Notes: generated by a model from the letters alone, not told the origin. A DNA stretch of 64,000 bases from Prevotella sp. (GCA_031285625.1 JAITVV010000092.1:128001-192000); one strand, 5' to 3'. Positions 17,814-36,763 are shown, counted from the stretch's first letter. Numbers and translations are program-made.

Positions 17814-18932
17814 ATGGAAAAGATTTGGAAACTGACACAAGATAAAAATTGGGATGCATTGGAAAAGCAATTCCAATGGGTAAATGATATGAGTAATGTA
17901 CCACAACATAAAATACATCACGGAGAAGGTAATGTTGCCAAACATACACAAATGGTATTGGACGAGCTCATCAAACTTCCCCAATACAATACATTATCAG
18001 AGCAAGATAAAGAAATATTATGGGTTAGTGCTTTGTTGCATGATGTGGAAAAACGATCTACATCACAGGACGATGGATTTGGTAAGGTTTCGGCAAACGG
18101 ACATGCGCGCAGAGGAGAATATACAACACGTACTATTCTTTTCAGGGATATCCCTACCCCATTTCATATCCGTGAAAAAATAGCTTCATTGGTACGCTTT
18201 CATGGATTACCATTATGGTTATTAGAAAAAGTAGAGCCGGCAAAAAAAATACATGAAGTATCGTTAAGGCTTGACACCTCACAATTAAAAACGCTTGCAG
18301 AAGCAGATGCAAAAGGAAGAATATGTGAAGATCTGCCTCAATTGATGGAATCATTGGAATTATTTGAATTGTTCTGTAAAGAGCAAGGTTGTTGGGGTAA
18401 AGCTTTAGAATTTGAGACACCCAATGCAAGGTTTCAGTATTTTAACTCGATAGACGGATATATAGGATATGTTCCTTTCGACGATTTTAAGAGTGAAGTC
18501 ACAATACTTTCCGGATTACCGGGCATGGGAAAAGATCATTACATTCAATCCTTAAAAACTGATATTCCGGTAATAAGCCTTGATGCTATCCGCCGCAAAC
18601 ATAAACTAAGCCCGACAGACAGGTCTGCCACAGGGTGGGTAGTACAAACGGCCAAAGAGCAAGCTCGCGAATACCTTCGCAAAGGACAAAATTTTATATG
18701 GAATGCAACTAATATTACACGACTTATGCGGCAGCAACTAGTCGATTTGTTTACATTATACGACGCAAAAGTAAATATCGTTTATCTGGAAAAGCCATAT
18801 GATAAATGGCGTACTCAAAATCGTAATCGTGAGTACCCATTACCTGAAAACGTATTGAATAAGATGCTATATAAATTGGAAATACCTCAACTCGTAGAAG
18901 CACACGACGTGAAATATATTATAGAAGAGTAG
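17814..18932 (+). CDS. HD phosphohydrolase fused to a P-loop (AAA_33) kinase; probable RNA end-healing enzyme
   Basis: HHGEGNVAKHT, LLHDVEK, GHARRG; GLPGMGKD Walker A; IWNATN. Confidence 0.85.
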   Translation: MEKIWKLTQDKNWDALEKQFQWVNDMSNVPQHKIHHGEGNVAKHTQMVLDELIKLPQYNTLSEQDKEILWVSALLHDVEKRSTSQDDGFGKVSANGHARRGEYTTRTILFRDIPTPFHIREKIASLVRFHGLPLWLLEKVEPAKKIHEVSLRLDTSQLKTLAEADAKGRICEDLPQLMESLELFELFCKEQGCWGKALEFETPNARFQYFNSIDGYIGYVPFDDFKSEVTILSGLPGMGKDHYIQSLKTDIPVISLDAIRRKHKLSPTDRSATGWVVQTAKEQAREYLRKGQNFIWNATNITRLMRQQLVDLFTLYDAKVNIVYLEKPYDKWRTQNRNREYPLPENVLNKMLYKLEIPQLVEAHDVKYIIEE

Positions 18933-19068
18933 TCAAGAATTACTAATATAATTTAAGGTGTTGCTTATGTTTCGCCTTAAATTATATTCAATATCCATCT
19001 ATTTTTCGTACGTTTGCTAATATAAGAAATGAACAGGTCTACTTCCTTAACTTTTTATCTAAGCAATA

Positions 19069-20025
19069 ATGTCAATCTTTACTATACTCGTTATAATATT
19101 CATTATAGTACCTATTATTAAAAGCATATTTAAGCATTATAATGAACAAAAGCCGCATTCTACCGGCTATAATTGGGGGAAATTATATTCAGCAAGACTT
19201 CGTTCGATATTAAGTTCCTATAATAATTTACGAGATGAGGAGATTATTGACAGTGCCATCGGATTTTATCTTTTTAGTTATAATGACGACACGAATGAAT
19301 TCATCTTCATACAAGAAGAAGATATCGCTATTATAAATCATTTTACTTATATGCAACTTATAAGCTATAATATCAGGAACACACGGGATTACAATATCAT
19401 TATAGATCTAAAAACGACTGTACCTAATAAGACACATATTTCCATCGAATGCTTTAATAGAGAAATTGCTCTGAAAAAGATACCATACTTAACATCAAGC
19501 CCTTCTGAATTTGATAATTTATATCAAATTGAAAAAGAGAAAGTAGAAGAAGTAGAATACATACTTCAGGAAATTCTTGAAAAACGTGGTAATACTGAAC
19601 AACCTCCAGTATATAAGGAAGAGGCTATAACTAATGAGGTTCCTATATATACTATCCCTATACCCGTAGAAGATGAAGTTCAGGTAATTGATGTCAAAGA
19701 AGAAATCATTCCGACAGAAATAGAGGAGGATGTTCCAGTATTGGGCGAACTAGTAACGGAAGAGGAAGAGCTTTTATACGAAACTCCATATTATGAAACT
19801 TCTCAACTTGAAGAATTAGTTACCAAGCAATCTGATAAAGAGGATAAGATACCAGTAACAGAAGAAAGCAGTGGTGAGATTGAAGTATCTTTATCTGATA
19901 TCGATGACTATTCCCGGGGGAAATTTCTGGATTGGGAAATACAGTCGGCAGTAGGTGACGCAAAAATAAAAGGACAGAAATCGATCTATCTCAGTGCCGA
20001 ACAATTAGAGAAACTAAAATCGTAA
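19069..20025 (+). CDS. Hypothetical membrane-anchored protein with an acidic tail
   Basis: N-terminal TM helix; Glu-rich low-complexity C-terminal half. Confidence 0.6.
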   Translation: MSIFTILVIIFIIVPIIKSIFKHYNEQKPHSTGYNWGKLYSARLRSILSSYNNLRDEEIIDSAIGFYLFSYNDDTNEFIFIQEEDIAIINHFTYMQLISYNIRNTRDYNIIIDLKTTVPNKTHISIECFNREIALKKIPYLTSSPSEFDNLYQIEKEKVEEVEYILQEILEKRGNTEQPPVYKEEAITNEVPIYTIPIPVEDEVQVIDVKEEIIPTEIEEDVPVLGELVTEEEELLYETPYYETSQLEELVTKQSDKEDKIPVTEESSGEIEVSLSDIDDYSRGKFLDWEIQSAVGDAKIKGQKSIYLSAEQLEKLKS

Positions 20026-20113
20026 ATAATAAACATTTTAAAGAGAAAACCGTTTATAAATAAGTTCTGTAATACAATATAACAGAAATTATTACTTTAT
20101 AAACAATTTAATT

Positions 20114-20473
20114 ATGTACAAATTAATTCTAAGCTTGCTAACAATGACCTTATTTTTAGGTGCATGCAGCAGCTCACAAAAAAACACCGATTCAGAAAAT
20201 GTAGAAACCCTGGTAATAGCATCACAGCAAGGTGATTGTGTAGGTGTAGCGCCTATGGAATGTTTTCTTGTAAAAAAAGATGGGCAAACCGAATGGGAGT
20301 TCTTTTATAACAATATAGAGGGTTTTAATTACGAACCTGGAAACGAATATGTAATAGAGGTAAAAACCGAAAAGATAGAAACTCCTGCTGCTGATCAATC
20401 ATCTTTAAAATATACTTTAGTGAAAGAAGTATCGAAGACACAAAAGACATCAGAAAATTTGCCTGTCAAATAA
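20114..20473 (+). CDS. DUF4377 lipoprotein
   Basis: Lipobox LGAC; CVGVAPMECF, IEGFNYEPGNEY and PAADQSSLKY motifs. Confidence 0.85.
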   Translation: MYKLILSLLTMTLFLGACSSSQKNTDSENVETLVIASQQGDCVGVAPMECFLVKKDGQTEWEFFYNNIEGFNYEPGNEYVIEVKTEKIETPAADQSSLKYTLVKEVSKTQKTSENLPVK

Positions 20474-20544
20474 ATACTTTCAATGAGATAAATAGAATAA
20501 AGCTTACATGAATTTATGTAAGCCTTATCTTTTAAATTAGTAAG

Positions 20545-21870
20545 TTATTCAAATAAAAATGGTTTGACTAACTCCAGTTTTGCTCTTTGCTCTTCAAAAA
20601 AGAATTTGTCATCACCAAAGGCTGGTTTCAACTGATTAAACCACGTTGCCTTCGAATCATATTGAGCAAAGAAAGGAATATCCACCCATTTAGGATTTCT
20701 TCCCTGTATAAAGCGTAGAACGAATATCTTCTCCCCTCTTACTTCTTGTACACCCAAGACTTGTATTTTCCCCGCATGGTCACTCATACTTGGACCTCTA
20801 ACTGTCCGGCAAAGACCGCTAACCTTACGGTATGCACGGCGGAAAATCTGCCAACACCTGTCTAAAGGTAATTCAAAATAATGTTTGGCACCCGTATCCC
20901 GAGCTATAAACATATAATAAGGTATGCATCCCAAATCAACCTGCTTTCGCCACATTTCAGCCCAAAGTTCAGGCTTGTCATTTATATTTCTCAGCAATGG
21001 CGATTGGGTACGTATCTGTGCACCTGTATTACGAATACGCATAATAGCCTGCTTCACCGCATCAGTAGATAGTTCCCTTGGATGATTAAAATGTGCCTGC
21101 ACCGACAGATTCTTACCAGCTTTGGTTATATCTTCAAACAGACGGATTACATCATCACTGTCTTTATCGGTCAAATACCTGTATGGCCAGTATGCCAAAG
21201 ATTTTGTACCGATACGGATAGAACGGATATGGCTGAATTCAGGTCCGAGCAAAGGCTTTATATATGCCTCAAGTGTAGCTGCATTCATTACCATCGGGTC
21301 GCCTCCGGTAAATAGTATATCTGTCACCTCTTTGTGCAATCGCAGGTATTTGAGCAATAGATCCGCCTCTTTCATGGCAAACTTAAGTTCACTCATACCC
21401 GAAAATTGTGGCCAACGGAAACAAAATGTACAAAACGCATGGCAGGTCTGTCCCTGGCTGGGAAAAAATAATACTGTTTCAGGATACTTGTGCTGTATCC
21501 CCTTCAACTTGATCTCACCTAAATAAGGTACATTATGTTCCTGTCCTGCAGGATTGGGATTCAGAGCCATACGTATCTGTTGTACTTTCTTGGCTATAGT
21601 TTCCTTATCCGCATTCTCATCTAACAACTTTTCAATAGCCGTATAATGCCTCTTTTCCAACATCCCTTGTCGTGGAAAATTCAACGTAAAGATAGGATCA
21701 GACTCTACATTTGTCCAATCAATCAGTTCATCTACCACATAGCTGTTTGTTTTAAATGGAAGAACTCTTCCTACAACATCTATGTCTTTTATCATCTCTT
21801 CTGTAAGAGATAAAATCTGTGGAATTGTACGGTAGTTATGTAACGCGTACGATATAATTTGCTTACTCAT
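20545..21870 (-). CDS. KamA-family radical SAM protein (lysine 2,3-aminomutase-like)
   Basis: HKYPETVL, CHAFCTFC, TGGDP, HFNHPREL, PYYMF; start set at MSKQII. Confidence 0.88.
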   Translation of the reverse strand: MSKQIISYALHNYRTIPQILSLTEEMIKDIDVVGRVLPFKTNSYVVDELIDWTNVESDPIFTLNFPRQGMLEKRHYTAIEKLLDENADKETIAKKVQQIRMALNPNPAGQEHNVPYLGEIKLKGIQHKYPETVLFFPSQGQTCHAFCTFCFRWPQFSGMSELKFAMKEADLLLKYLRLHKEVTDILFTGGDPMVMNAATLEAYIKPLLGPEFSHIRSIRIGTKSLAYWPYRYLTDKDSDDVIRLFEDITKAGKNLSVQAHFNHPRELSTDAVKQAIMRIRNTGAQIRTQSPLLRNINDKPELWAEMWRKQVDLGCIPYYMFIARDTGAKHYFELPLDRCWQIFRRAYRKVSGLCRTVRGPSMSDHAGKIQVLGVQEVRGEKIFVLRFIQGRNPKWVDIPFFAQYDSKATWFNQLKPAFGDDKFFFEEQRAKLELVKPFLFE

Positions 21871-22038
21871 AGTTATAAAATTTCGAAGGGCATTTGATCT
21901 CCATCCATACAATATACTAAAAATGTGTCACATATACAAAATACGTACCTTAGCGCACACATTTTTTTAAAGTATTATAACATTTACCCCCCTCTATCGG
22001 GCATTTTTTTTCTTTTTATGCCAAAATAGTTATAGGTA

Positions 22039-22073
22039 CGCAAAAAAACTGCGCAATCACTATATTATATTTG
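22039..22073 (+). promoter_or_regulatory. CGCA-N7-TGCG box plus -7 element upstream of the Hen1 operon
   Basis: CGCAAAAAAACTGCG at 22039-22053; TATATTTG at 22066-22073. Confidence 0.7.
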
Positions 22074-22101
22074 TACCAATATTAGAAATAAGATAGAAAT
22101 T

Positions 22102-23412
22102 ATGATCTTAAAAATTAGAAGCAAAAACGATTATTTGCTTGATATTCTTTTCAAGAACCCGAACACAGACTATGGATTGTATTTCAAGACTTTAAAGAAT
22201 GGTCAGATAGTAGGAAATGCGGTTAACAAACATTACTATGAGGTAGTTTTTCAGGATACTAAATACAGTTATCTGCCTGAAGAAAGCAACCAGATAGACT
22301 ATCAAAGCTATTGCACACCATTATCTGTATTGCACATATGCAATGAGCTTTTTACACATATACTAAAAAGTAAAGACGAGTTTTCTCAAAAACCAATTAC
22401 GTGGCTTGACATTACACAAGGTAAAGCCGATACAGAAAATTGTATAATTGAAATACCTTCTTTTTATATTGACTCCAACTGGTTTCGAAACGAACGTTTT
22501 CTACCTTCAAAGTATTTTGATGGGGTAAAGGTCGAACAACAAACAAACCGCATCTTTAAGTTGACAATTACTGCAAAATCTGTTTTTGAAGCATTCAATT
22601 TACTGGCTTTGGTCGCATTGTTTACTCATGTTACAAATGAATATAGAATACATACTTATATAGATGATCAATTGGCCCAGAAATATGGACGAATATTGAC
22701 CAATATTGAAAATGTTCCATATTTTGTTTTCTACCTGTTCATTATGAAGGCTGTGAAATCCGAAAGTCAGTTTAAGGAACTGAAACCTTTATTCGAGAAA
22801 TATCTTGAAGGAAACGGATTGATAGCTAATCTGGTATTAAAAGGTACATACCTGCAGCGTATTCATTATATAGTTAATCAGCTAGAACTGGATATACCAA
22901 TTCTGGATATTGGATGTGGAGAATTCACCTACTATAAAAAGATGATGGCTAAGGAATTTAAAGCACCATATTATGCTGTAGATCAAGATAGCCAATTTGA
23001 ACGATTGAGTGAGAATATTGCACGAAGGTATGAGGAAGACAATCTGATATTCTACAATTCATTAGAACAGTTTACATCTGACGAACAGGTAAATATTCTT
23101 TTGACCGAAGTTATTGAGCATAATCCAAGGGAAGAAGCCGATATATTGATAAAGAAGGCTTTATCATTTAATTTCAACAAATTATTAATTACCACCCCAA
23201 ATGTGGAGTTCAATCAATTTTACAATATGGAGAGTGAGTTTCGCCACGACGATCATCAGTTTGAACTTACCCAAAAAGAATTTGAAGAACTAATAGAGAG
23301 TTGTATCTGGAACATGGAAAATCCGGAACAATATAAAGTAGCGTTTTTTCAATTAGGTGATAGTCTAAATGACATTCAGCCAACACAAGGATGTGTAATC
23401 AGAAAACAATAA
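22102..23412 (+). CDS. hen1: Hen1-type RNA 3'-terminal 2'-O-methyltransferase
   Basis: ILDIGCGE (SAM), EVIEH, ITTPNVEFN and FRHDDHQFE Hen1 metal-binding motifs; N-terminal KNP motif. Confidence 0.85.
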   Translation: MILKIRSKNDYLLDILFKNPNTDYGLYFKTLKNGQIVGNAVNKHYYEVVFQDTKYSYLPEESNQIDYQSYCTPLSVLHICNELFTHILKSKDEFSQKPITWLDITQGKADTENCIIEIPSFYIDSNWFRNERFLPSKYFDGVKVEQQTNRIFKLTITAKSVFEAFNLLALVALFTHVTNEYRIHTYIDDQLAQKYGRILTNIENVPYFVFYLFIMKAVKSESQFKELKPLFEKYLEGNGLIANLVLKGTYLQRIHYIVNQLELDIPILDIGCGEFTYYKKMMAKEFKAPYYAVDQDSQFERLSENIARRYEEDNLIFYNSLEQFTSDEQVNILLTEVIEHNPREEADILIKKALSFNFNKLLITTPNVEFNQFYNMESEFRHDDHQFELTQKEFEELIESCIWNMENPEQYKVAFFQLGDSLNDIQPTQGCVIRKQ

Positions 23413-23441
23413 TCAGTTAATAGTTATCAAACGATATAATT

Positions 23442-24626
23442 ATGGAAGATTTAAAACGATTAAAAAATAGAATTGACTGGTTTTGTGAAAACAAAGTGAA
23501 TGCTTTTTCACCTACCATATCACCGGCTCCAAAATCGATTGAACGAAACGAGATAGAGAGTATATATGAAGGTATCCGTTACTTCTTTGAAAATGGAGTA
23601 CAGGAGATAGTGATACAAAAGAAATATATGGGCTCTTACTGTGATATATATTTAAATAAGAATCTGGAAGATACCTATTTCGTTAGCCGAAACGGGCATA
23701 AAATAGATCATATTGACTTGATTGCAGCAGTAGAAGCCTGTAGAGAATTGCACAGCCGTATCGACTGGACTGATACTGACATGCTCATTATCCAATCGGA
23801 ACTTATGCCTTGGAGTGCTTTAGGTAAAGGACTGATTGAAAATGAATTTGAAGGCTATCTGAATGTACACCAAAACCACTGCAACCATCTGACTCAATCG
23901 GATATATATGAGAAAATCTCAAAAGTAAAGGCTTCTCAACCTTACATAGACTTTATTGAGGATAAGAACAAACTTTCTCTCAAGGAATTGAGAGAAAGGT
24001 ATCCTCATCATATTATCCGCCAGTATGAATCTGTAGCCGATTTTAATATACTGGATATGGAAGTGTATAAAACAAGTATCGATATATACGAAAAACAGAT
24101 CAATCATTTTGGCAAAAAAGATTCTATACACTTCAAGCCGTTCAATATTCTGAAAAAAGTATTTAAAGACGGCTCTGAACTGATAGTGAACGACAACCTA
24201 AGTTATAGAGAAGTAAATAATGATGAATGTCTGAACTTGTACATACGCAACGAAGAGGAATTTAACCAGTCAGTAGAAGAGATATACAAGTGGTTTGTAA
24301 CCCTGGAGCAAAATATGGAAGAAGGTATTGTAATCAAACCCCGTCAGGCGTTTATCAGAAATATGCCTCCTGCATTCAAAGTAAGAAACAATAAGTATCT
24401 TACAATGATATACGGAGTAAATTTTCATGAACAATATGATTACTATCTTTATAAACGTAAGATCGACCGTAAACTGGAATGCTCCATTAATGACTGGATG
24501 ATCAATTGGGAGTTGCTGAAAGTGAAATACAAAGATATCAGCAAAGAAAACTACCTGTTGAAGAACCTTGTTTTCGACCGCATTATGGGAGAGAGGGTTG
24601 AAGCTGGATTGGATATGAGATTATAA
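23442..24626 (+). CDS. Stand-alone Pnkp-type RNA ligase (Rnl)
   Basis: FSPTISPA, QKKYMGS (motif I), SRNG, ELMPWS, EEGIVIKP, KVRNNKYLTMIYG, C-terminal LDMRL. Confidence 0.85.
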   Translation: MEDLKRLKNRIDWFCENKVNAFSPTISPAPKSIERNEIESIYEGIRYFFENGVQEIVIQKKYMGSYCDIYLNKNLEDTYFVSRNGHKIDHIDLIAAVEACRELHSRIDWTDTDMLIIQSELMPWSALGKGLIENEFEGYLNVHQNHCNHLTQSDIYEKISKVKASQPYIDFIEDKNKLSLKELRERYPHHIIRQYESVADFNILDMEVYKTSIDIYEKQINHFGKKDSIHFKPFNILKKVFKDGSELIVNDNLSYREVNNDECLNLYIRNEEEFNQSVEEIYKWFVTLEQNMEEGIVIKPRQAFIRNMPPAFKVRNNKYLTMIYGVNFHEQYDYYLYKRKIDRKLECSINDWMINWELLKVKYKDISKENYLLKNLVFDRIMGERVEAGLDMRL

Positions 24627-24783
24627 GAATGAACTTGTACAAATTGCTGGGTATGTCTGAATATTTTTATGGAGATTCTATTGAAATAGATATTATAAAA
24701 ACAGACAAAACGAAAACAAGATTTTTGAATTAATCTTTACATACTTTATAAGCAAAAATTAAGTAAGACATAAGTATATAACA

Positions 24784-25698
24784 ATGAAAAAAAACTCCAA
24801 AATATTAATATTAATCGGTGCTCCCGGATCGGGTAAATCCACTTTCGCAAAGTATTTTATCCGCACCGAAGAAAATTGGATGCGTCTTTGCCGTGATGAT
24901 TTTCGCATGATGCATTTTACATATGCTAATTTATCTCCACGCGATGAAGGTTTGATTACCGACATGCTGGATGTATCTATAGAAGCATTACTAAAGAAAA
25001 GATGTAATGTGCTGATAGATGCTACTCACTGCAGAGCAGAATATCTGAACCACTATATAGAAAAATTTAACCATCTGGCAGATATATCTTTCAAAGTATT
25101 TGAAGCCGATGCCGAAGAAATAGCCGAACGCTGTGATAAACGTAATAAGGAAACGGGCAAATATATTCCGGCGAATGTGCAAAAACGCTATATAAAAGAA
25201 CTGGAAGAGTTGAAAAAGACATTTGATCTCTCAACCCGTCCTAAGATTGATAAAAGAGTAAAAATAGCAGAGCAGAATACAACCCTACCTAAAGCTGTTA
25301 TTTGTGACCTTGACGGAACGCTTGCCCTTATGGATGATCGTAATCCATTTGATGCATCCCATAGTGATAAAGATGAATTAAATAAACCGGTAGCAAATAC
25401 ATTAAAAGCTTTAGCGAAAGATGGTTACCAGATACTTTTGGTTTCAGGTAGGGAAGATAAGTTCAGAGAACCGACTAAGCGTTTTCTTGAAATCCATAAC
25501 ATTCCTTATCATCAACTTTGGATGCGCCAAAGCAAGGATTATAGAAAAGATTCGATAATAAAAAAAGAAATATTCGACGCTGAAATAAAGGATAAATATT
25601 ATATCGATTTAGTACTTGACGACAGAGACCAGGTGGTAGAAATGTGGCGTAAAGAGTTAAAGTTAAATTGCTTTCAGGTGAATTATGGGAATTTTTAA
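24784..25698 (+). CDS. T4 PNK-like polynucleotide 5'-kinase/3'-phosphatase (Pnkp1)
   Basis: GAPGSGKST and RDDFR kinase motifs; DLDGT, SGR and DDR HAD phosphatase motifs. Confidence 0.9.
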   Translation: MKKNSKILILIGAPGSGKSTFAKYFIRTEENWMRLCRDDFRMMHFTYANLSPRDEGLITDMLDVSIEALLKKRCNVLIDATHCRAEYLNHYIEKFNHLADISFKVFEADAEEIAERCDKRNKETGKYIPANVQKRYIKELEELKKTFDLSTRPKIDKRVKIAEQNTTLPKAVICDLDGTLALMDDRNPFDASHSDKDELNKPVANTLKALAKDGYQILLVSGREDKFREPTKRFLEIHNIPYHQLWMRQSKDYRKDSIIKKEIFDAEIKDKYYIDLVLDDRDQVVEMWRKELKLNCFQVNYGNF

Positions 25699-26118
25699 AG
25701 CATACCATGTATGCTTACATAATATCCAGTTTGCTTTTGTCTTTTTCGAAGAGAAAAGTATAGCCATATTCACCAAGCCTTTTCTGTGCATCAATCATAT
25801 CTTCTGATGATTTTGTGAGAATCAAAGTAGAAATGATTACAGGATGATCTACATCTTGTAGGTAAGGTTGAAAATAACCGATAGGTACATCAAATCCCAG
25901 ATACTCGGACTAAAACTGATTGCTCATTCCAAGGCTCTATATTTTCAGGTCTTTCCTTTATTACTCTGTTATGATATATATCTAATTGATCCAATAATGA
26001 AGAAAGAATGTATTAAGAAAACAATGTTCGGATTCTGTTCCAATGAAAGTATTATTATCATCAAACGATCGAATTTAATCATTATCCCCAACATGAACCC
26101 GTACAAGATATACTTGTT

Positions 26119-26352
26119 ATGATAGGCCGTCACTTCAATATAGATCCCTTGTTGAAACAATGGACAAAAAGTAAGTCAACAGCTTCTGTTTTACATTTTG
26201 TTGATTTAATGATTAATAAAGATTATAAACAGATTAGCTCATACCCCAATGTTCAAATGGAAAGTAGGATTGATATATGGCTTAAAAAGGCTGATACTAA
26301 AATACATTTTATGGCTGAAAGTCGATATAGAGATAGCATATGCTACATATAA
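26119..26352 (+). pseudogene. Probable gene remnant
   Basis: Short protein-like fragment in an AT-rich stretch with broken frames. Confidence 0.3.
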
Positions 26353-26455
26353 GAATATAGATACAGGCTTTCATACATAGATATTAACAATCCAAATTGT
26401 TATACAAGTAATACTGAATATCCTACCTTTGTTATATTAACTAAATAGTAGAATT

Positions 26456-26755
26456 ATGGTCTTAATACAAATAAATTTTGACTTTCCGGTAGAAATGATG
26501 GGTGACGCTCTCACTATAGGAGCTAAAGAATTGGCAGAAAGTATTAATAATGAGCCTGGTTTTGTTTCCAAAATATGGATAGAAAATGTTAAAACTGAAG
26601 AGAGTGGTGGAATCTATATTTTTAAAGATATGGAGTCTGCTGAAAAATATGCAGCGATGCACTCTAAACGAGTTGAGGCTATGGGTGCAAAAAATATTGT
26701 ATGCAAATTCTTTAATGTGAACGAGCCTTTATCTCGAATTAATCACGGAATATAA
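26456..26755 (+). CDS. YdhR-family putative monooxygenase
   Basis: LAESINNEPGFVSKIWIEN, GGIYIF, FNVNEPLSRI. Confidence 0.85.
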   Translation: MVLIQINFDFPVEMMGDALTIGAKELAESINNEPGFVSKIWIENVKTEESGGIYIFKDMESAEKYAAMHSKRVEAMGAKNIVCKFFNVNEPLSRINHGI

Positions 26756-26758
26756 TAT

Positions 26759-26973
26759 ACAAGTAAGGTAACAGGCGAGAAGAGACTTGCCTTGCGGCTA
26801 TCGGACGTTCTTACCCCCAGGAGGCAGTGAACCGGCATTCGACATCTCAGGGAGACTTGCGCATTGTGCTTTGCCCTGTCGGTTTTCAACCCGACTTCGC
26901 GGAATCGGTTGCCCGAATCTAAGCTACCTTAGGCCCATTATCGAAGTAACCCTTCTCTACGACACTTACTTGT
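26759..26973 (-). ncRNA. Large Y-RNA-like ncRNA with a 23S rRNA H69-H71-like insert
   Basis: Terminal ACAAGUAAG/CUUACUUGU stem; GUGUCGUAG, GUUACUUCG and CCUGUUAC family motifs; TATCTTTG promoter at 26981-26988. Confidence 0.7.
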
Positions 26974-27000
26974 TATTGTGCAAAGATAGTAAAAAAGAAC

Positions 27001-27189
27001 TTATCGGAAAGACTTCCTCTTCTGAATGGCTCCGGCAACAAGCATCACTAGCCCAAGGCCTGTAGTAAATCCCTGAAAGAAAGCAATTGCTGATATCGTA
27101 TGGTCCGGCGATAAATATTTTAAGATGAAAGACACAGATATTAGAAATAATCCCAAGCTTATTTTCTTATTCAAATTTATGTTTTTCAT
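27001..27189 (-). CDS. Small two-TM membrane protein
   Basis: 62 aa, two hydrophobic segments, directly downstream of the helicase. Confidence 0.5.
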   Translation of the reverse strand: MKNINLNKKISLGLFLISVSFILKYLSPDHTISAIAFFQGFTTGLGLVMLVAGAIQKRKSFR

Positions 27190-27223
27190 GATATGTCATT
27201 TTTATTATATACAAATATAATAA

Positions 27224-29980
27224 CTATCTCCATTTGTTCACTTGTTCCGATGTATTATCATCCGTAAAATTTGCCGAAAGGGCTTTCATTCTGGCCTCTA
27301 ACAGTTGTTTTCTACCTTCAATTGTACGTGTATAAATAAGGTCGCATGGACCAACAAGTTCGAGCCATTGCTGAGAGAAATATTGAGCAAGTTTTTTATT
27401 CCTACCCAAGATCTCAGGTACTGCATGGTAGTCGCGCCGGATTTGTTCTGCAAAGAATTTACTTTTACGTACGATTATATAACGTGGATTTTCAATGACA
27501 TTAACAATTTCTTGCAATGTATCGATAAATACAGCTTGCTCAAAAGTACTTCCTCCATCGAGATAACAATAAATGGCTCCAGCTTCATCAGAATATGCAA
27601 TAACCTTTAGGTTTGCAGGATTAGTAATTATTGTGCCTTGCTTGATTAATGACTTGAGCAACACATTTCCTATTTGTTGAATATCTTTAGAAATATCCCT
27701 GAATTTTATATATAGTTTTAGTGTCTTATAAGTTTGCCTGCCACACATAAATAATCCTGTAAGGGCAGTAAGAAGAATAAAGAAATAGAAATCTTTTGGG
27801 GTTCGCAATGCCTTTATATTGTGTATCAATGATTCAAGAGTCTGAGAAGCAAAAGCTGTAAGTAACAATAGAAGATCGGCTCCAAGATACTTTATCGTCC
27901 GCATCATGTATAGTTGTTTTAGCTTTGGGTATTCGCCCCCTTTTTCGCTATAGAACGGGATCTTTATCTCCTCTACAATTTGTACCCCTCCGGCAATAGC
28001 TTTTGCCCATCTTTCATTTAGGGTGCATCGGTCTCCGGCATTCGTTAATGTAACAAGATTAATTCCTCTGATTGTTTCCTCATTGTATGAATCCCTATGT
28101 ATATTAAGGCGTTGCAATCCATTTTCAATTGTCGGTTCCTCATAGTTTGATAATCCGACAAAGCTTCGAAAACGTCTTCTCATTACTTCCAGGTCGCTAC
28201 CTCCATCTTCCATTGTAGGATCGAGGCAGACAAGATGCCATATATTACTTGTTTTGGATGGATTATCTTTTTGTGTTCTTATTGCACGTCCCCGCATTTG
28301 ATTGGAAAGTACAAAAGATCCTACAAAACTAGCTAAAATCAGACTATTGATTGCCGGAGCATCCCATCCTTCTCCCAACAGGGATTTAGTACCGATAAGA
28401 ATCTCGATCTCCCCTTCCTGAAATAGTTGTGTTATGATTTGTACCAGTTTATTTTTAAGAGTTGCATTTGATTTGATAATCCTGTATCCATCTATATACT
28501 CATATGTGAGCGGATCCAGTTCTGTCATGCCGTGTATGATGCATAATTCATGGAAACGACTAATTGCATCAATAGGTATGATTGTTATTGAACCTGTGAG
28601 TACTCCGAGTTTTTTATTATCATTGTTATATTTACGTAGATGTTCGAATATGGGAATCACCCCAATCTTGCTTAACTCAATGTCTACATTGTCTTTATTG
28701 AGGCATTCACTTCGTATATAATCTGACAAAATAACCATGCGCAAATCAGATTGTAAATGGCTATGTTCAAAATCAACAATCTCTTTTATGCTATTCATCT
28801 TTCCATTACTGGAAATAAGAAGCTTATTGATGCGCTGATTATAAAGCATGTTCACTCTGTTGCGTTCGAGTACTCCATATCGTCTTAATTGATTCATCAA
28901 GGCTTCCTTTTCTTCTTCAAACTCTTCAAAGAGTTCTTTCTCCTGAAAAAGAAAGAAGTTAAGTAATATTTCAATACGTTCATAGAGCAATTCTGGAATA
29001 TCTACTTTGGGTATATCATTTCCCTCATATCCACTTACTATTCTTAAGTGGATAACGGGAATCTCGATATTATTTGCATGCAGGAATATAATACATGATG
29101 TGTATATAGGTAAATTATCATAAATCCAGTCCAGATACTTTTCCGGCTCATTCCATGCAGGGATACTTGCCATTGCATTAATCAAAGTCTCCGAATGGGA
29201 TAGCTTCTGATAAAGATCATTCATGTCTTTTCGAAACTTATTTATCTTTCGGTATTCTTCTTCAGTAGGCATTGAAAAGTAAATATGATCCTGATGAGGG
29301 CACAGATCGCCTTCGATAATTAGTTCCGGAATGGAAATTTCTGTGTCGATACTACCATTCAGGTCGAGGTAGCGTCTCCATTCAGTATAGCTGACATCAT
29401 AGGGTGGAGTGGCCGTAAGACCAACGACAAAGGGATCTAATTGTTCTTTAACCTTTATGAGAGTATGCCACCATTCATTCATCAGATGATGTGCTTCATC
29501 AACAACAATTGTCCCTATTCCTACACTTTTTAGTCCTTTAACGATAGATACCAGAGTGGATTTATTATGAGCTTTGGCTTTGATCGGTTTAGGTTCAGAA
29601 TTTTCATCTTCCGGTTCTTCATCTTCTGCTTGTATTTGTCCGCTACATGATGAGTGTAAGCCTTGATACGTCACTACAGTTATGAATGCAGGCTTGCGGA
29701 TATCGGTTGATATCCATTCGGGAGTGATATGTGTATCTAAGAATAGTTCACAAAAACGTTGTATCCATTGGTTCCGGATGGTTAAAGACGGGGCTAGTAT
29801 TAAAGTCGCTTTATTGATGCGTATTGCTACTTCTAGTCCTAATACTGTTTTACCTGATCCTGGAGGTGCGATAACATGCAAATGCCTGTCTTCCATATGG
29901 AAGTCTAATTCATCCAATACTTTTTGTTGGTATTTTCTCCAGGGATATTTAAATTTTGTATTGGATGGAAAGGTTTTCAT
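27224..29980 (-). CDS. SF2 DEAD/DEAH-box (ResIII-like) helicase with C-terminal TM segments
   Basis: PPGSGKT, DEAHH, GLTATP, LGEGWD and QMRGRAIR motifs; two hydrophobic helices near the C-terminus. Confidence 0.85.
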   Translation of the reverse strand: MKTFPSNTKFKYPWRKYQQKVLDELDFHMEDRHLHVIAPPGSGKTVLGLEVAIRINKATLILAPSLTIRNQWIQRFCELFLDTHITPEWISTDIRKPAFITVVTYQGLHSSCSGQIQAEDEEPEDENSEPKPIKAKAHNKSTLVSIVKGLKSVGIGTIVVDEAHHLMNEWWHTLIKVKEQLDPFVVGLTATPPYDVSYTEWRRYLDLNGSIDTEISIPELIIEGDLCPHQDHIYFSMPTEEEYRKINKFRKDMNDLYQKLSHSETLINAMASIPAWNEPEKYLDWIYDNLPIYTSCIIFLHANNIEIPVIHLRIVSGYEGNDIPKVDIPELLYERIEILLNFFLFQEKELFEEFEEEKEALMNQLRRYGVLERNRVNMLYNQRINKLLISSNGKMNSIKEIVDFEHSHLQSDLRMVILSDYIRSECLNKDNVDIELSKIGVIPIFEHLRKYNNDNKKLGVLTGSITIIPIDAISRFHELCIIHGMTELDPLTYEYIDGYRIIKSNATLKNKLVQIITQLFQEGEIEILIGTKSLLGEGWDAPAINSLILASFVGSFVLSNQMRGRAIRTQKDNPSKTSNIWHLVCLDPTMEDGGSDLEVMRRRFRSFVGLSNYEEPTIENGLQRLNIHRDSYNEETIRGINLVTLTNAGDRCTLNERWAKAIAGGVQIVEEIKIPFYSEKGGEYPKLKQLYMMRTIKYLGADLLLLLTAFASQTLESLIHNIKALRTPKDFYFFILLTALTGLFMCGRQTYKTLKLYIKFRDISKDIQQIGNVLLKSLIKQGTIITNPANLKVIAYSDEAGAIYCYLDGGSTFEQAVFIDTLQEIVNVIENPRYIIVRKSKFFAEQIRRDYHAVPEILGRNKKLAQYFSQQWLELVGPCDLIYTRTIEGRKQLLEARMKALSANFTDDNTSEQVNKWR

Positions 29981-30398
29981 TTGTATTGTTTGAGTAATAA
30001 ATCACAAAGATAATTGAAAAAAGGAATAACTCCTTGTTATCCCTTTAGTCTCTATCTTTTAAAATTCTCCATCCTGGTTGGGAATACATTACTTCCATTA
30101 TGAAAAGCAAAGGGGATTCTATACTCAGCAACTGGGTTATCAACGTAAAGGGATGAATAAACGTTTCCGGGAACGTTTTAATCATGAAGAAACCTTTATA
30201 TTTACCAGGAAGGATAATTTTGATTATGCCTATAAGTGTGTCAATTATTATTGGCATGATGACACAAAAGAAGATGTTGATTTACGTAAAAATTCAAACA
30301 TGATTTTATAGATAAATATATTGAAGGTGCAAGTTTTATGATGCCGGACTATTAAGTGTCTGATAAATTATTGTACTTTTAAAAGAAATTATAATCAT

Positions 30399-31151
30399 AT
30401 GAGAGAAAAGAGGGATTTAAATCTGGCAGTACTGATTGATGCAGATAATGTACCGTATTCTAATATAAAAGGTATGCTGGATGAAATAGCCAAAATAGGT
30501 GTACCAACAATAAAACGTATTTATGGAGATTGGACAAAGCCAACAGTTTCGGGATGGAAGCAGCCGTTACTGGAGCATGCAATCACTCCGATACAACAAT
30601 ATAGCTACACTACGGGAAAAAATGCGACCGATTCTGCAATGATTATTGATGCCATGGATATTCTGCATAGTGACAAAGTAGATGGATTCTGTCTGGTTTC
30701 CAGTGATAGTGACTTTACCCGACTGGCAGTAAGACTCAGGGAATCTGGTATGCAGGTGATCGGTATAGGAGAGAAAAAGACGCCGAATCCATTCATTGTA
30801 GCCTGTGATAAGTTCATCTATATTGAAATTATCGGTGATTCTGAGGATCAGCAGGATACAACAACTTCTGCAACAAAGAAAGATAAAGAAAAGAATATAG
30901 AGCCTGTAAATAAAAAACTTATCAATCTGTTAAAGAGCACAGTGCGTGATCTTGCCGACGATGACGGCTGGGCCTATCTGGGAGATATAGGTAATCTCAT
31001 TATTAAAAAGCGCCCCGATTTTGATTCCCGTAACTATGGTTTCTCCAAGCTTGCAGCTTTAGTAAAGGCGCAAAAGAAGGTATTTGAGATAGATGAACGA
31101 AAGACTGAAAAAGGACACTCGCAATTGGTATATGTGAAAATTAAGGAGTAG
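30399..31151 (+). CDS. NYN (LabA/DUF88) ribonuclease-like domain plus OST-HTH/LOTUS
   Basis: LIDADN, RIYGDW, GKNATD, SSDSDF; C-terminal PDFDSRNYGFSKL. Confidence 0.9.
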   Translation: MREKRDLNLAVLIDADNVPYSNIKGMLDEIAKIGVPTIKRIYGDWTKPTVSGWKQPLLEHAITPIQQYSYTTGKNATDSAMIIDAMDILHSDKVDGFCLVSSDSDFTRLAVRLRESGMQVIGIGEKKTPNPFIVACDKFIYIEIIGDSEDQQDTTTSATKKDKEKNIEPVNKKLINLLKSTVRDLADDDGWAYLGDIGNLIIKKRPDFDSRNYGFSKLAALVKAQKKVFEIDERKTEKGHSQLVYVKIKE

Positions 31152-31152
31152 C

Positions 31153-31848
31153 TCAACCTGCTCCATTTATACAATAAAGCAGGATTTTTCCCTCTTTATT
31201 CTTTCGTATATAATATATTTCAGAAAATTCGGTGATACTTTCTTTTGGGTCTCCACTGTTATAGCTCAAATGATAATTTGAAATATACTCTCCTTGGTAT
31301 TCCTCTCCGGTAAAGAGATGGATAGAGTGTATATAGCCATCGGATGTTTTTAGGGTCGGATTATATGCCTTGTCTTTTATTGCTTTATCAAAATCATATT
31401 TAACTAATAATTGTATAAACTCCTTATCAAAGATTTTACTTGCATTCTCAATAAAGTCCTCTCTATAGAATTTACCATCTTTGCTATTAGCTAGTGCCAC
31501 CTGTTCATCAGTATAATCCGGCGCATAAACTTTAAATCGAAAAACATCCCCAAATAAGGGATATTGTACCATGTCGGCCAGTTTATGATAATCTTTTTTT
31601 AAGAGGTTCTTTTTGAACTCTTTCCAAAAACTGATTTGTTCTTCAGCACTCATTATTTCTGTGGAAGTCATCTCCTTATAAGGATCGTCCTGAATATCTT
31701 TCCGTATAGTAGTTTCGGATATTATAGAATCAGTCAATGATACCACTGAGTCAATTTTTTCAACGGGAGCTGCTTTACTTGTATTGCTCGTACATGAAAA
31801 ACAAATCGCTGAAAATAGTATGAAAGAGAAATAAATCAGTTTGTTCAT
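31153..31848 (-). CDS. Hypothetical lipoprotein
   Basis: Lipobox CFSC. Confidence 0.65.
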   Translation of the reverse strand: MNKLIYFSFILFSAICFSCTSNTSKAAPVEKIDSVVSLTDSIISETTIRKDIQDDPYKEMTSTEIMSAEEQISFWKEFKKNLLKKDYHKLADMVQYPLFGDVFRFKVYAPDYTDEQVALANSKDGKFYREDFIENASKIFDKEFIQLLVKYDFDKAIKDKAYNPTLKTSDGYIHSIHLFTGEEYQGEYISNYHLSYNSGDPKESITEFSEIYYIRKNKEGKILLYCINGAG

Positions 31849-31881
31849 ATGTTTGTAAAGTATGTCTGTATAAAGATAGAT

Positions 31882-31918
31882 AAAATCAGAGCTGAAATAT
31901 TACATTTCAACTCTGATT
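31882..31918 (-). terminator. Probable terminator after rsr and the mini Y-RNA
   Basis: AATCAGAG(c)TGAAAT...ATTTCA(a)CTCTGATT hairpin followed by a U-rich tail on the minus strand. Confidence 0.6.
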
Positions 31919-31925
31919 ATTAAAA

Positions 31926-32007
31926 AAATCTTGTGAAGTAACTATCACAAAGAGGCTAGCAAATTTTAAGTCCGAAGGAACTCTATGCTACGACACTCAC
32001 AAGATTT
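31926..32007 (-). ncRNA. Mini Y-RNA-like stem directly after the Ro60 stop codon
   Basis: AAAUCUUGUGAGUGUCGUAGCAUAGAGUUCCUUCG...CUCUUUGUGAUAGUUACUUCACAAGAUUU; same motifs as the other units. Confidence 0.65.
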
Positions 32008-32012
32008 CTCAT

Positions 32013-33527
32013 TTATAGTTCTATTTTTCTTACTTCGTCCAAAGCGTTCCCACCATTATCTATAGCCGATATGATGTCAAATATTTTATCGGACCAACCA
32101 GCTATCAAATACACATCGTTCTGAGTGATATCCAATGGAGTGTTTCCATAACCGGACAAGTCGAACAGATATAGCTTACTGCTTGGTGATATCTTTTTAT
32201 ATTCATTCCATAGATCAGCTATTTTCTTGTCATTTTTGTTGTTCCACAATTGCAAATCAGTAAACATCATGACTTTATCCATCTGTTGTTTTCTCTTTAT
32301 CAGGTCTTCTATTACCAGATAACCGTTGGTTGCATAGCCTACTTCTCCTTCGCGGCGATAGAAAGCATCCACATTAGACAATATACCTTGTGTAGGTACA
32401 TTTATCACCTTCCACTTATCACCGAACATCCCGGTTATGGCATTTTCGCAGCGTGACTTCAATAGCATAGCCAGCATCAAACCTATATCATAACACAGTA
32501 TTTTACTTTTAGCAGATACCGGACGTTGCATAGAGCCTGATACGTCACATGCTATCAGTACACTGGTGTCAGCATCAAAACCTTTTATATTTTCAGCAGA
32601 TACAGCTACGGCTTTTTCCAATGCATCCAGTACACGGCTTGCATATGCAGACTTCACTTTAGATATTTCACGATACGCAGCCAGAAAACGGAATGGCAAT
32701 TGTTTTGAACGACGTACAGCTTCCGGTGAAGCCAACGCACTGCATACTTTTATGATATGCTCTTTCGAAACATTCGATTCCAGTATATTACGCAAGTTAC
32801 GCATCAATGCCATATAGCCTATTTTACCACTATCTATCAGTTCTTCCCATTTGATGCGGAATGCAGTTCCCTTTTCAGCTTCGGAATCAAATTTTATTTG
32901 ACCCAATGCAGAAAGTTCTGTTTCCCAAGTATATGGTGTTTCCAATGTATCATTTACTATCTTGTTGAACAAAGCCTGTTGGTCTTCATCCTTTGCCTTA
33001 GGGTGTACAAGAAATAGTGCATCACGAAGTTTTATTTCCGCATCACGATTATATTTTGCAAACTGATATTCATCAAACCGGTTGAATGCATTCTGCAATC
33101 CGGCTTGTAGCTGTTTCGACAGACGATTTAGTTTCTTTGTGTCTTGTCTTTCATTAGCAAGCTGGTAGTAGGCCAACAGTTCTGTTATCTCATCTGCACG
33201 CTGCACCACTTGCAATACCATTTTGCTTACAGTAGAGTCTCCTCTGTGTATTTTAGCCAACTCTACAGCCAATACCAATGGAATTGAACGCAGATTCATC
33301 TTCTGGCGTGTATATACAGCCAGCTGTGCTACAAATATCGGGTCACATCGTTTTATCAAACCACGCATTGTTTCAACTCGGGCTTGCGCGCTTTCGTAAA
33401 ACTTGTCACTCAATGCAGAGGTAACGGCAGCAGTATACAATTGCCACTCTGGTGATAGACGGTATGCTTGTGCTCCTTCATAATTTACCACCTTGTTTTT
33501 TCCTTTGTTTCTGAAATTGAATTTCAT
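32013..33527 (-). CDS. rsr: Ro60/TROVE-domain RNA-binding protein with vWA domain
   Basis: VNYEG, FYES, RADE, KYNR, TWETELS, MALMRNLRN, SKQLPFRFLAAY; MIDAS DVSGSM. Confidence 0.93.
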   Translation of the reverse strand: MKFNFRNKGKNKVVNYEGAQAYRLSPEWQLYTAAVTSALSDKFYESAQARVETMRGLIKRCDPIFVAQLAVYTRQKMNLRSIPLVLAVELAKIHRGDSTVSKMVLQVVQRADEITELLAYYQLANERQDTKKLNRLSKQLQAGLQNAFNRFDEYQFAKYNRDAEIKLRDALFLVHPKAKDEDQQALFNKIVNDTLETPYTWETELSALGQIKFDSEAEKGTAFRIKWEELIDSGKIGYMALMRNLRNILESNVSKEHIIKVCSALASPEAVRRSKQLPFRFLAAYREISKVKSAYASRVLDALEKAVAVSAENIKGFDADTSVLIACDVSGSMQRPVSAKSKILCYDIGLMLAMLLKSRCENAITGMFGDKWKVINVPTQGILSNVDAFYRREGEVGYATNGYLVIEDLIKRKQQMDKVMMFTDLQLWNNKNDKKIADLWNEYKKISPSSKLYLFDLSGYGNTPLDITQNDVYLIAGWSDKIFDIISAIDNGGNALDEVRKIEL

Positions 33528-33581
33528 CTCTTTTAATTTTTAATGTTAAGGTCTTAACGACACTCTAATTGTTTGACATTA

Positions 33582-33616
33582 CAAAGATTCAAAAACAAGT
33601 ACGCAGCTTTTTTGCG
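33582..33616 (-). promoter_or_regulatory. CGCA-N7-TGCG box and -7-like element upstream of rsr
   Basis: TACGCAGCTTTTTTGCGTA at 33600-33618; AATCTTTG on the minus strand at 33582-33589. Confidence 0.7.
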
Positions 33617-33904
33617 TAACAAAAACTTTCTTTTAAAACTTCTCATTTTTAACAATTATCATAAAAAAGTAACAAGTTACATCGATCTCCAATATTCAAT
33701 TAATTATTTGATTATTAAATATATGATTCTAACATCAAGCATAAAAAGTGACAAAAGTAACAGGTTTTGCCCATTTTTTATTGTAACCTTATTCTTTTAT
33801 CGATATGCTGACCTAATAAGATAAAGTTTTTAAACAATCTCAAATCTGGTAATTTCATACTGATTATAAAAATAATAAGTGTATTTTTGGCTAAAATTTA
33901 ACAA

Positions 33905-34816
33905 ATGTTTGAAAAGAAAATCAGTACGGCAATAGGCCGGTATTTCCCATTATTTATAGGATGGAGCCGATATATATTATATAAACATCCCGACTGGCTG
34001 CTTCGAAAGGATATTCTTAAATATTATGATTCCGTATCTCCATCAGAAATAAATGAAGAACAAGCGGAAGCAGTTTCTTACATTCGTAAAAAAGGGGCGC
34101 ATTATTTTCCCTATTCGTTTATTGAAAAGTATAATCCGGAAAAAATAAAAGTATATACAAATGAAAAATGTGGATTAAAGTATGTATTACATAATGAGAA
34201 ACGGCTCTATTTTGCAAGAGAAACATCAGCTTTTAATATTCAGAGGATATATACCAACCTTTTGTACGAGCAGGATCGTAAATCTGCACATTGCTACCAG
34301 ACTGAGACTTTTAGGATAGAAGAAGGAGACATCCTGTTTGATGTAGGTGCTGCAGAAGGTATATTTTCGTTAACAGTGATTGAGAAGGTAAAGAAAGTCT
34401 ATCTCTTCGAAGTAGAGGAGCGCTGGCTGGAAGCATTACGCGAAACTTTCAAGCCATGGCAGGATAAAGTGGAGATTATCTGCAAATATGTATCTGATAC
34501 GGATAGTGAGCAAACTGCCAAACTGGATACTGTTATAAAAAAGCTTAGTAATGAATCTTTATTTCTTAAACTGGATGTGGAAGGAGCCGAAAAATTAGTT
34601 ATCAAAGGAGCAAACGAGATATTAACTTCAGGAAATAATAAAATTAAAGCTGCCGTATGTACCTACCACAATCAAGATGATCATGAAGAACTATCGGCTA
34701 TCATGAAGGATTTAGGATATAGGGTAAGTACATCTCCCGGCTACATGCTTTTTAAGCAACAAAATCTGGCTCCGCCTTATCTGAGAAGGGGTTTAATTTA
34801 TTGTAGTAAAGAATAA
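33905..34816 (+). CDS. FkbM-family SAM methyltransferase
   Basis: FDVGAAEG, LKLDVEGAE and VCTYH motifs. Confidence 0.85.
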   Translation: MFEKKISTAIGRYFPLFIGWSRYILYKHPDWLLRKDILKYYDSVSPSEINEEQAEAVSYIRKKGAHYFPYSFIEKYNPEKIKVYTNEKCGLKYVLHNEKRLYFARETSAFNIQRIYTNLLYEQDRKSAHCYQTETFRIEEGDILFDVGAAEGIFSLTVIEKVKKVYLFEVEERWLEALRETFKPWQDKVEIICKYVSDTDSEQTAKLDTVIKKLSNESLFLKLDVEGAEKLVIKGANEILTSGNNKIKAAVCTYHNQDDHEELSAIMKDLGYRVSTSPGYMLFKQQNLAPPYLRRGLIYCSKE

Positions 34817-34845
34817 TCTTTACATTATCAGAGAAATAATAGAAG

Positions 34846-35904: not shown

Positions 35905-36335
35905 CTATAGATCAGAATAATATATCAGAATTCCTATCTAAAGTTGAAAATATTATTAAGTCTCTTGATGAACTTTCAGGTTTATCAGACAATTGCATTA
36001 AAGAATTCGACGGTACTGAATTTGATGGACAAAGCCAGTTAGCTGGTAAGTTGGATGACCTGTTCCTTATAGCTAGCCACGAAATGGCAACACAACTTGC
36101 TTTCGTAAAAGAAGATATTCTTATCCTTATAAAGTTCATAAAATTCAGAAAAGGATATCCCCAACTATCGGAAACAGAGCTCGAACAAATATTAGACACT
36201 GAGAATCTGGAACTTAAATTTAAAATGGAGATAAAACCTAAATTGAGAGACCATAGTATTCTTGAAATAAAGGAATTATGGAACAATACATTCAACAATA
36301 AATCATTCAAGAAGATAATAAACCGGTTCAAATAA
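35901..36335 (+). CDS. Hypothetical protein; frame open from an ATA at 35901
   Basis: Stop-free frame from ATA 35901 (overlapping the upstream TAG) to TAA 36335; the ORF track starts it late at TTG 36051. Confidence 0.45.
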   Translation: MAIDQNNISEFLSKVENIIKSLDELSGLSDNCIKEFDGTEFDGQSQLAGKLDDLFLIASHEMATQLAFVKEDILILIKFIKFRKGYPQLSETELEQILDTENLELKFKMEIKPKLRDHSILEIKELWNNTFNNKSFKKIINRFK

Positions 36336-36339
36336 AAAA

Positions 36340-36463: not shown

Positions 36464-36473
36464 AATTATAAAA

Positions 36474-36611: not shown

Positions 36612-36621
36612 ATATTTAATC

Positions 36622-36745: not shown

Positions 36746-36763
36746 TGTACTAATTCACAAATA

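Follow-up and report, generated by a model that had tools for sequence, protein, structure and literature searches.

Y RNAs are described as modular molecules, in which a stem binds Ro60 and a second module tethers an effector or gates access. In the published accounts, YrlA (RF02553; Salmonella, Mycobacterium and many bacteria) is a tRNA mimic without the anticodon loop and with a closed acceptor stem, and Yrn1 of Deinococcus radiodurans (Rsr/Y RNA/PNPase, RYPER) supplies the model of mechanism, with Rsr bound at the stem and an effector tethered through the other module. One bacterial module type, the tRNA mimic, is so far understood, and its partner is still to be found. Outside the Y RNAs, the leaders of ribosomal-protein operons are short RNAs that copy an rRNA site to bind its binder, and they are cis-acting mRNA elements that precede ribosomal-protein genes.

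Here we analyse an RNA in a 64,000-nt stretch of DNA (the window) that joins a Y-type terminal stem to an rRNA-like inner domain. It resembles YrlA, as the latter is described, in its position near rsr, in a long stem formed by pairing of the ends, which in this RNA carries a motif one base away from GNCGAA, and in a second module of the type seen in YrlA, a permuted mimic of a translation RNA in which the Ro stem replaces the distal tip. In contrast to YrlA, the module is not tRNA-like but is made up in part of sequence from 23S H69 and its linker, and with eight inner helices the RNA has about double the length; YrlA and tRNA models searched over 26400-27400 gave no match at E <= 10. No sequence relation to Yrn1 was found. 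The likeness to H69-H71 of 23S rRNA (domain IV) consists of up to 33 identical nt that comprise the H69 loop, the H69 3' strand and CCUAAGGUAGCGAAAUUC. As in 23S rRNA, the 3' strand is paired and a hairpin comes next at the H71 position, whereas the H69 5' strand is supplied from the other end of the insert and a GNRA hairpin stands in place of the 9 nt that precede H71. Unlike the ribosomal-protein leaders, the RNA has a Y stem and a gene of its own, and no ribosomal-protein gene lies nearby. A first reading of the window from sequence only had known of no described equivalent, and none was found in Rfam 15 or in the full-text literature, a body of text that mostly excludes subscription journals; the species tables of Chen 2014 may include these genera. 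The rRNA-like RNA probably represents a previously undescribed Y RNA subfamily, and with it the few RNA mimics known from nature would gain one of rRNA that is free-standing.

The locus, the family and the terminal stem

The RNA lies in a dense RNA-repair island (17814-35904). The features of the surrounding locus are listed below in window positions; bit scores labelled R1 refer to a covariance model made from 16 sequences.

17814-18932: HD and kinase protein (HD+AAA_33), part of the RNA-repair island
22102-23412: Hen1, part of the RNA-repair island
23442-24626: ORF with the Pnkp ligase domain, after Hen1
24784-25698: Pnkp kinase/phosphatase ORF, after Hen1
26759-26973 (-): whole RNA, ~215 nt, Y-type terminal stem and rRNA-like inner domain
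26950-26973 (-): 5' strand of the terminal stem, P1 ACAAGUAAG, GUCGUAG (26963-26957), then P2 GAGAAGGG
26759-26784 (-): 3' strand of the terminal stem, CUCUUCUC ... CUUACUUGU
26981-26988 (-): promoter-like box TATCTTTG, 7-8 nt upstream of the RNA 5' end
27224-29980 (-): 918-aa ResIII/DEAD helicase
30399-31151 (+): NYN-LOTUS protein
31927-32005 (-): minimal Y-like sibling RNA, 79 nt, directly after the rsr stop codon (R1, 45.1 bits)
32013-33527 (-): rsr, the Ro60 ortholog (Pfam TROVE, E 6.5e-31; vWA_Ro60, E 3.8e-06)
33905-34816: FkbM-type methyltransferase, part of the RNA-repair island
34846-35904: RlaP, part of the RNA-repair island
36334-37032 (-): tandem array of five Y-like siblings, several of them tRNA-like (R1, 27-45 bits)
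36633-36733 (-): YrlA-matching sibling (Rfam YrlA, 35.2 bits, E 7.9e-6; gathering score 69)
58459-58616 (-): YrlA-like sibling, T arm then D arm (R1, 44.7 bits)

R1 matches the whole RNA at 26757-26974 with 197.9 bits. The RNA is intergenic, with a convergent ydhR-like gene on one side and a 62-aa ORF on the other, and because the next gene is convergent, there is no gene downstream on its own strand. The CTTTG of the promoter-like box is invariant in five Dysgonomonas copies, and we take the box to resemble the Bacteroidota -7 box. Traces of expression, which are assembled contigs of RNA libraries only and no proof of a transcript or its ends, include a 153-nt metatranscriptome contig wholly within the RNA (26805-26958); the other contigs include flanks or may be DNA. 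In the island itself, Pnkp is split over two ORFs (ligase; kinase/phosphatase), both after Hen1.

The RNA belongs to a conserved family, from which 25 clear and six divergent high-GC members were collected. The members come from Dysgonomonas, Chryseobacterium, Chitinophagaceae, Niastella and metagenomes, and one is Myxococcota-like. At ~188-245 nt, they are longer than the 80-130 nt described for Y RNAs. The 25 members score at least 134 bits with R1 and the six high-GC members 31-58 bits, while R1 gives no match to true 23S rRNA. A DNA search found the RNA in five of 61 related genomes, all from the window's genus. An independent genome search used a pattern from a hairpin distant from the 23S-like block; it returned 18 genome loci, of which two are chance matches in unrelated sequence and 16 are real (nine in Chryseobacterium, four Dysgonomonas duplicates, and one each in Niastella, Chitinophagaceae and a Bacteroidota MAG). 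A pattern of the 23S-like block plus the next hairpin returned 14 metagenome loci, six of them high-GC. The Rsr beside one high-GC member (L037) is 85% identical to Kofleriaceae/Myxococcales MAG proteins, and the family therefore extends beyond Bacteroidota. It is nevertheless rare: in an even sample of the phylum, one of 151 genomes gave a full-length match, and this was the window's own genome. Searches for an association with mobile elements gave 0 matches in viral contigs and none in plasmid or phage records. No Rfam 15 family reached its gathering score in the window or in eight related loci, and over the RNA region Rfam 15 returned noise only at E <= 10.

The terminal stem is well conserved as a structure. 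Its helices 1 and 2 together comprise 19 pairs that are 97% paired, and 12 of these pairs have changed on both sides (9/11 in helix 1 and 3/8 in helix 2). A motif close to the Y RNA 5' end, GNCGAAN0-1G, has been published and is thought to be involved in Rsr recognition (Chen 2014). The window copy reads GUCGUAG, with one difference from this motif, a variant common to all eight Y-like RNAs of the window, and the canonical form GCCGAACG is present in a high-GC member (L027). For the related decamer GTGYCGTAGA, the window holds 11 copies where 2.84 would be expected, a count reached by 0/100 shuffles. These eight RNAs, which are the rRNA-like RNA and seven siblings, have both stem strands in common and their terminal pairs covary, and the siblings match R1 by the terminal stem only. 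Several siblings show a T arm followed by a D arm. None of the siblings reaches the gathering score of the Rfam YrlA model, which indicates that this model covers the Bacteroidota Y-like forms poorly.

Linkage to rsr is found at several levels. In the window, rsr lies 5 kb upstream of the RNA on the same strand. Across the family, Rsr was detected by tblastn at 15 of 34 loci, and in L037, on a Myxococcota-like contig, 148 nt separate the end of an upstream TROVE/vWA_Ro60 ORF from the RNA. Eight of 35 genomes of the genus contain rsr, and all five RNA-carrying genomes are among these eight; the remaining three rsr-positive genomes contain stem-type Y RNA arrays only (at most 51 bits). The RNA had been called Y-RNA-like from the window alone, and this description is borne out by a terminal stem common to seven siblings, one of which is a sub-threshold match to YrlA, and by a family that adjoins rsr in two phyla. 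From the stem and the rsr linkage, we infer that the RNA at 26759-26973 is a Y RNA that would bind Rsr.

In Chryseobacterium (L008, L009, L012, L018, L020, L024 and L025), the RNA lies inside Y-like arrays that adjoin rsr, and the same layout is seen at L010, L011, L016, L026 and L030-L038, with up to ~6-8 RNAs in an array. A tRNA-like Y RNA often stands next after the rRNA-like RNA, and its D arm is identical to that of a spacer tRNA. On a high-GC metagenome contig (L035), the gene after the RNA encodes a vWA-domain protein that stands alone (430-1206, plus strand), and the 3.1 kb of this contig show no TROVE gene.

The 23S-like block and the fold of the inner domain

Because the window's genome is without an assembled 23S rRNA, we took as the reference the 23S rRNA of G003, a complete genome from this genus, with the secondary structure from the Rfam LSU alignment. 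The features of the inner domain are as follows.

26923-26941 (-): 23S-like block AUAAUGGGCCUAAGGUAGC, the H69 3' strand between a shortened H69 loop and the strand toward H70
26933-26937 (-): UGGGC, equivalent of the H69 3' strand and 5' side of P3, pairs with 26802-26806
26902-26919 (-): P4, GNRA-capped hairpin directly 3' of the 23S-like block
26878-26895 (-): P5, hairpin GUCGG-GUUGAAAA-CCGAC
26834-26875 (-): P6, GGCA paired with UGCC
26861-26869 (-): P7, hairpin within P6
26844-26856 (-): P8, hairpin within P6
26807-26832 (-): P9, two-part hairpin GUUC-AC-UGCCU...GGGUA-A-GAAC, abutting P3
26802-26806 (-): GUCCG, distal segment supplying the H69 5' strand, 3' side of P3, supported by covariation
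26789-26798 (-): P10, small hairpin GCC-GCAA-GGC, between P3 and the 3' strand of the stem

The window copy of AUAAUGGGCCUAAGGUAGC (26941-26923) is identical to 23S 1927-1945 (G003 numbering) at 17 of 19 positions, as had been noted at the outset. Taken by itself, this copy matches 23S rRNA only modestly beyond chance: blastn gives E 0.076, and its score is reached by 12/500 dinucleotide shuffles against 23S 1820-1990 and by 3/200 shuffles against the whole 23S. The relatives show a much stronger likeness. A homolog from the same genus (G023) matches 23S exactly over 27/27 nt (E 7e-11), all 12 members from outside Dysgonomonas whose discovery did not depend on the block have exact matches of 15-27 nt to the same 23S site, and the longest exact match in the family is 33 nt, again at this site. 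For L005, L009, L011 and L037, the observed 23S score was reached by 0/500 shuffles, and the family HMM matches 23S 1920-1952 with E 3.9e-8. Of the proposed significance against shuffled sequence, the part that concerns the window copy alone is thus modest, whereas the part that concerns the family and the relatives lies far beyond chance. The results confirm the 23S H69 identity of the block, which is stronger in the relatives than in the window copy, and they agree with the earlier claim of an insert bearing a 23S block of H69 and the H70 linker, a block that the homologs keep as exact matches of 15-33 nt at one 23S site.

As a control, 113 Y-like RNAs were compared with the rRNA locus. Matches within 23S came from the rRNA-like family only, and all of them fall at the H69 site, except a 14-nt match of the window copy at 1658-1671; the other Y-like RNAs match the D and T arms of the spacer tRNAs and give one weak 18-nt match outside 23S. 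In 23S rRNA, the counterpart of the block takes in the loop and 3' strand of H69, the C-UAA-G turn and GUAGC, and it runs into the strand that leads toward H71. Beyond ~33 nt, the family profile shows no significant 23S similarity, and the Rfam LSU model gives no match to the RNA at E <= 10. A 23S fragment or pseudogene was considered and rejected on these grounds, since only 33 nt are alike and the RNA possesses a stem and covarying helices of its own.

The fold was scored as 61 pairs on 22 full-length members, in an alignment fitted to our own model; the key counts are equal on a plain MAFFT alignment (A3). In the fold, 96.5% of the cells are paired, compared with 40-47% when the 3' partners are slid. 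Both-side changes are seen in 32 of the 61 pairs, compared with 3-12 in the slid controls, and 0/500 shuffles reach 32. Covariation supports 11 helices. The inner domain runs in the order 23S-like block, P4, P5, P6 enclosing two small hairpins, P9, P3 and P10. In helix 4, two of five pairs have changed on both sides, and the P4 hairpin, which comes immediately 3' of GGUAGCG, occurs throughout the family, including all high-GC members. Helix 6 is 98.1% paired with both-side changes in three of five pairs, and helices 7 and 8 within it are supported. Helix 9 is 99.5% paired, and the base of P9 covaries across lineages (GUUC/GAAC, GCUC/GAGC and GUCC/GGAC). Folding of single sequences gives no such consistency: the whole-RNA MFE has a z-score of -1.06, with 36/200 shuffles folding as well, and MFE folding pairs the H69 strand with its distal partner in 2/27 members and otherwise chooses inconsistent partners. 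Because single-sequence folding is inconsistent, we relied on covariation.

The pairing that defines the permuted layout is P3. The earlier observation that GUCCG (26806-26802) is complementary to UGGGC (26937-26933) is correct, and the prediction that the H69 3' strand pairs with a distal segment on the 3' side, GRC(G) across the family, is upheld by compensatory changes in the closest relatives, with CGAAC/GUUCG in place of UGGGC/GUCCG. The core pairs of P3 are 100% paired in the 22 members (GC20/AU2; UA13/UG5/AU2/GU2; CG22), and the helix has 3 bp in most members and 5 bp in window-type copies. Because this pairing covaries, the permuted topology is real, and because the partner has been compensated where the H69 3' strand changed, the H69 helix itself is maintained. 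The module is a candidate structural mimic of H69 in that it holds H69 sequence with the 3' strand in a helix. Pairing between the CG that precedes the loop and the CG that follows it (UG in the window copy) is possible in all 22 members, so that a complete H69-like hairpin can form in the relatives, and in these the Y stem and P10 branch from the 5' strand of this hairpin. The idea that the Ro stem replaces the H69 loop is not sustained: the loop (UAACUAUAA) is kept in the relatives, and the point at which the Ro stem branches off is the 5' strand of H69.

The loop takes the following forms in the 22 members.

8/22: the 23S sequence, 9 nt
1/22: one substitution
2/22: 8 nt
7/22: 6 nt
4/22: 4 nt, including the window copy

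With a 6-nt loop in 7/22 and a 4-nt loop in 4/22 members, a function that depends on the loop cannot be universal. Two local alternatives to P3 fare poorly. The CUAAG/CUUAG hairpin, which the first reading had named as a competitor of the rRNA-like fold, is present in only 4/22 members. A local GUUACUU/AGGUAGC pairing was also considered and rejected, as it is lost where the 5' side changes.

Possible roles of the H69-like module

The family, its structure, its 23S identity and its rsr linkage are observations, whereas the function proposed here, most likely that of a tether or dock, is deduced from them. We consider it probable that the RNA is a bacterial Y RNA, a predicted partner of Rsr from a previously undescribed subfamily, with the H69-like module as a putative effector or docking module. 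Rsr would bind the terminal stem, which is of the same type as in the neighbouring tRNA-like Y RNAs, and the second module appears to be built around 23S H69 and the conserved strand after H69 (CCUAAGGUAGCG). Since the H69 3' strand pairs with the far 3' segment of the insert, the Y stem would enter via the H69 5' strand. By analogy with the modular Y RNAs, the rRNA-like module may act as an effector-binding or docking module and bring Rsr, together with any associated exonuclease, to a target that would ordinarily recognise the 50S subunit by its H69 region.

H69 and the nucleotides that follow it form inter-subunit bridges to h44, h45 and h24 of 16S rRNA, and RluD, RlmH, RRF and HflX contact the H69 region. 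Candidate targets of the module would therefore be the 30S interface around h44/h45, an immature 50S subunit without docked domain IV, or an H69-binding protein such as RluD, RlmH, RRF or HflX. A second independent mimic, and one whose model is a 23S element universally conserved and situated at the subunit interface, points to the ribosome or to ribosome-handling factors as the target of Rsr, and it hints that RNA quality control may be connected to the ribosome in a new way. The question becomes a testable one, namely what binds both H69 and the rRNA-like Y RNA, and the family occurs in culturable Chryseobacterium and Dysgonomonas strains. A more far-reaching version, which we regard as unlikely, would read the Y RNA arrays by rsr as a panel of look-alikes of the translation machinery, made up of tRNA bodies and, in this family, of H69 with its junction; the rRNA-like member would dock Rsr and a 3'-5' exonuclease on the 30S face that is the usual contact of H69 or on a 50S subunit with undocked domain IV. 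If it were true, ribosomal subunits would be chosen for trimming, repair or decay under stress in an RNA-guided manner.

The same module could instead serve as a decoy or bait, in which it would mimic the ribosomal target of an rRNA-directed nuclease or modifying toxin and either absorb the toxin or, as a damaged copy, be handled by Hen1, Pnkp and RlaP or signal to them. The gene content of the island (Hen1, the Pnkp ligase, the Pnkp kinase/phosphatase, RlaP, and the HD+kinase and NYN-LOTUS proteins) is in its favour, as is the identity of the block to a universally conserved rRNA site. We nevertheless hold it improbable, because rsr is the only window gene beside the RNA in the Chryseobacterium, Chitinophagaceae and Myxococcota-like loci, apart from a Pnkp kinase/phosphatase homolog at L016. 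Moreover, the H69 loop, which would be the most exposed target, is shortened in 11/22 members, and a hairpin takes the place of the stretch that joins GGUAGCG to H71 in 23S. We also know of no toxin that acts on H69, and we count this against the decoy.

A pseudo-substrate or gate is another reading to which we give a slight chance. Here, the module would imitate a 23S substrate of Rsr, and Rsr or its partner exonucleases would stay inactive until rRNA competes. Published work in which Y-RNA-free Rsr assists 23S maturation, bound Y RNA inhibits it and Yrn1 may act as a gate fits this idea, but the mimicked site is internal to 23S (domain IV) and far from the ends that are trimmed in maturation.

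That the block is an evolutionary fossil, a captured 23S fragment that now serves as structural filler or makes a sequence-specific contact unrelated to ribosome mimicry, seems to us decidedly improbable. Although ~33 nt alone resemble 23S and the remaining domain is without significant similarity, the block is identical over 15-33 nt across Bacteroidota and the Myxococcota-like lineage while the flanking helices covary freely, and compensation in the partner of the H69 3' strand indicates that the helix is maintained. Finally, it is hardly credible that the RNA is no Y RNA at all but an unrelated structured RNA or a cis-regulatory leader within the island, as its lack of an Rfam family match and its length above that of known Y RNAs might suggest, because there is no downstream gene on its strand and the next gene is convergent, both stem strands are common to the YrlA-like siblings, and in other genera it is located in Y RNA arrays beside rsr.

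Among the neighbouring genes, the 918-aa helicase and the NYN-LOTUS protein flank the RNA and rsr. In the genus genomes compared, the presence of NYN-LOTUS does not follow that of the RNA. The helicase is a weak lead as a candidate partner: it is present in three of four RNA-carrying genomes examined (G000, G023 and G027; not G004) and in 0/3 rsr-positive genomes without the RNA, numbers that are too few to use.

Further likenesses to rRNA in the inner domain

Beyond the H69 block, the sequence-only reading had proposed additional rRNA equivalents, and these fared differently. GAAUGCCG had been equated with 23S GAAUGG(U/C)G, that is, with the H67 3' strand. Its UGCC pairs with the upstream GGCA, and the pair covaries to UUACC/GGUAA (helix 6); because GAAUGCCG is the 3' strand of the covarying P6, it is not an H67 equivalent. 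The wider similarity to H67/H68 has also been given up. The family profile matches 23S 1822-1865 with only E 0.7, and this match lay in the predicted permuted order, but a broader 3'-core profile (28 members, including the high-GC ones) found nothing in 23S at E <= 100. Since the match vanishes with the broader profile, H67/H68 mimicry is not claimed.

The proposed intact H71 stem, GUCGG...CCGAC, is indeed present at 26895-26878 as P5, but as an H71 element it is lineage-specific and freely covarying: the stem pairs vary as CG11/UA9/AU1 and CG11/UA8/AU1, and among the Bacteroidota members only some have the hairpin, which L039 lacks and which is not evident in the high-GC members. P4 is universal and located where H71 would begin, and both P4 and P5 are candidates for the H71 equivalent. 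The 14-nt match seen in the control belongs to P5, which is identical over 14/14 nt (26882-26895, AGUCGGGUUGAAAA) to 23S 1658-1671 of the same genus (E 0.004 and 0.083), a region other than H69. This identity is read as chance because the stem covaries in the relatives, and P5 as a copy of 23S 1658-1671 was rejected for the same reason. A further feature of this region is that the unit AGCG-(N)AA-UCGGG-loop-CCGA-CC occurs twice in a row at 26880-26919 (-), as P4 and P5, an arrangement suggesting that an H71-like hairpin was duplicated locally together with the sequence beside it.
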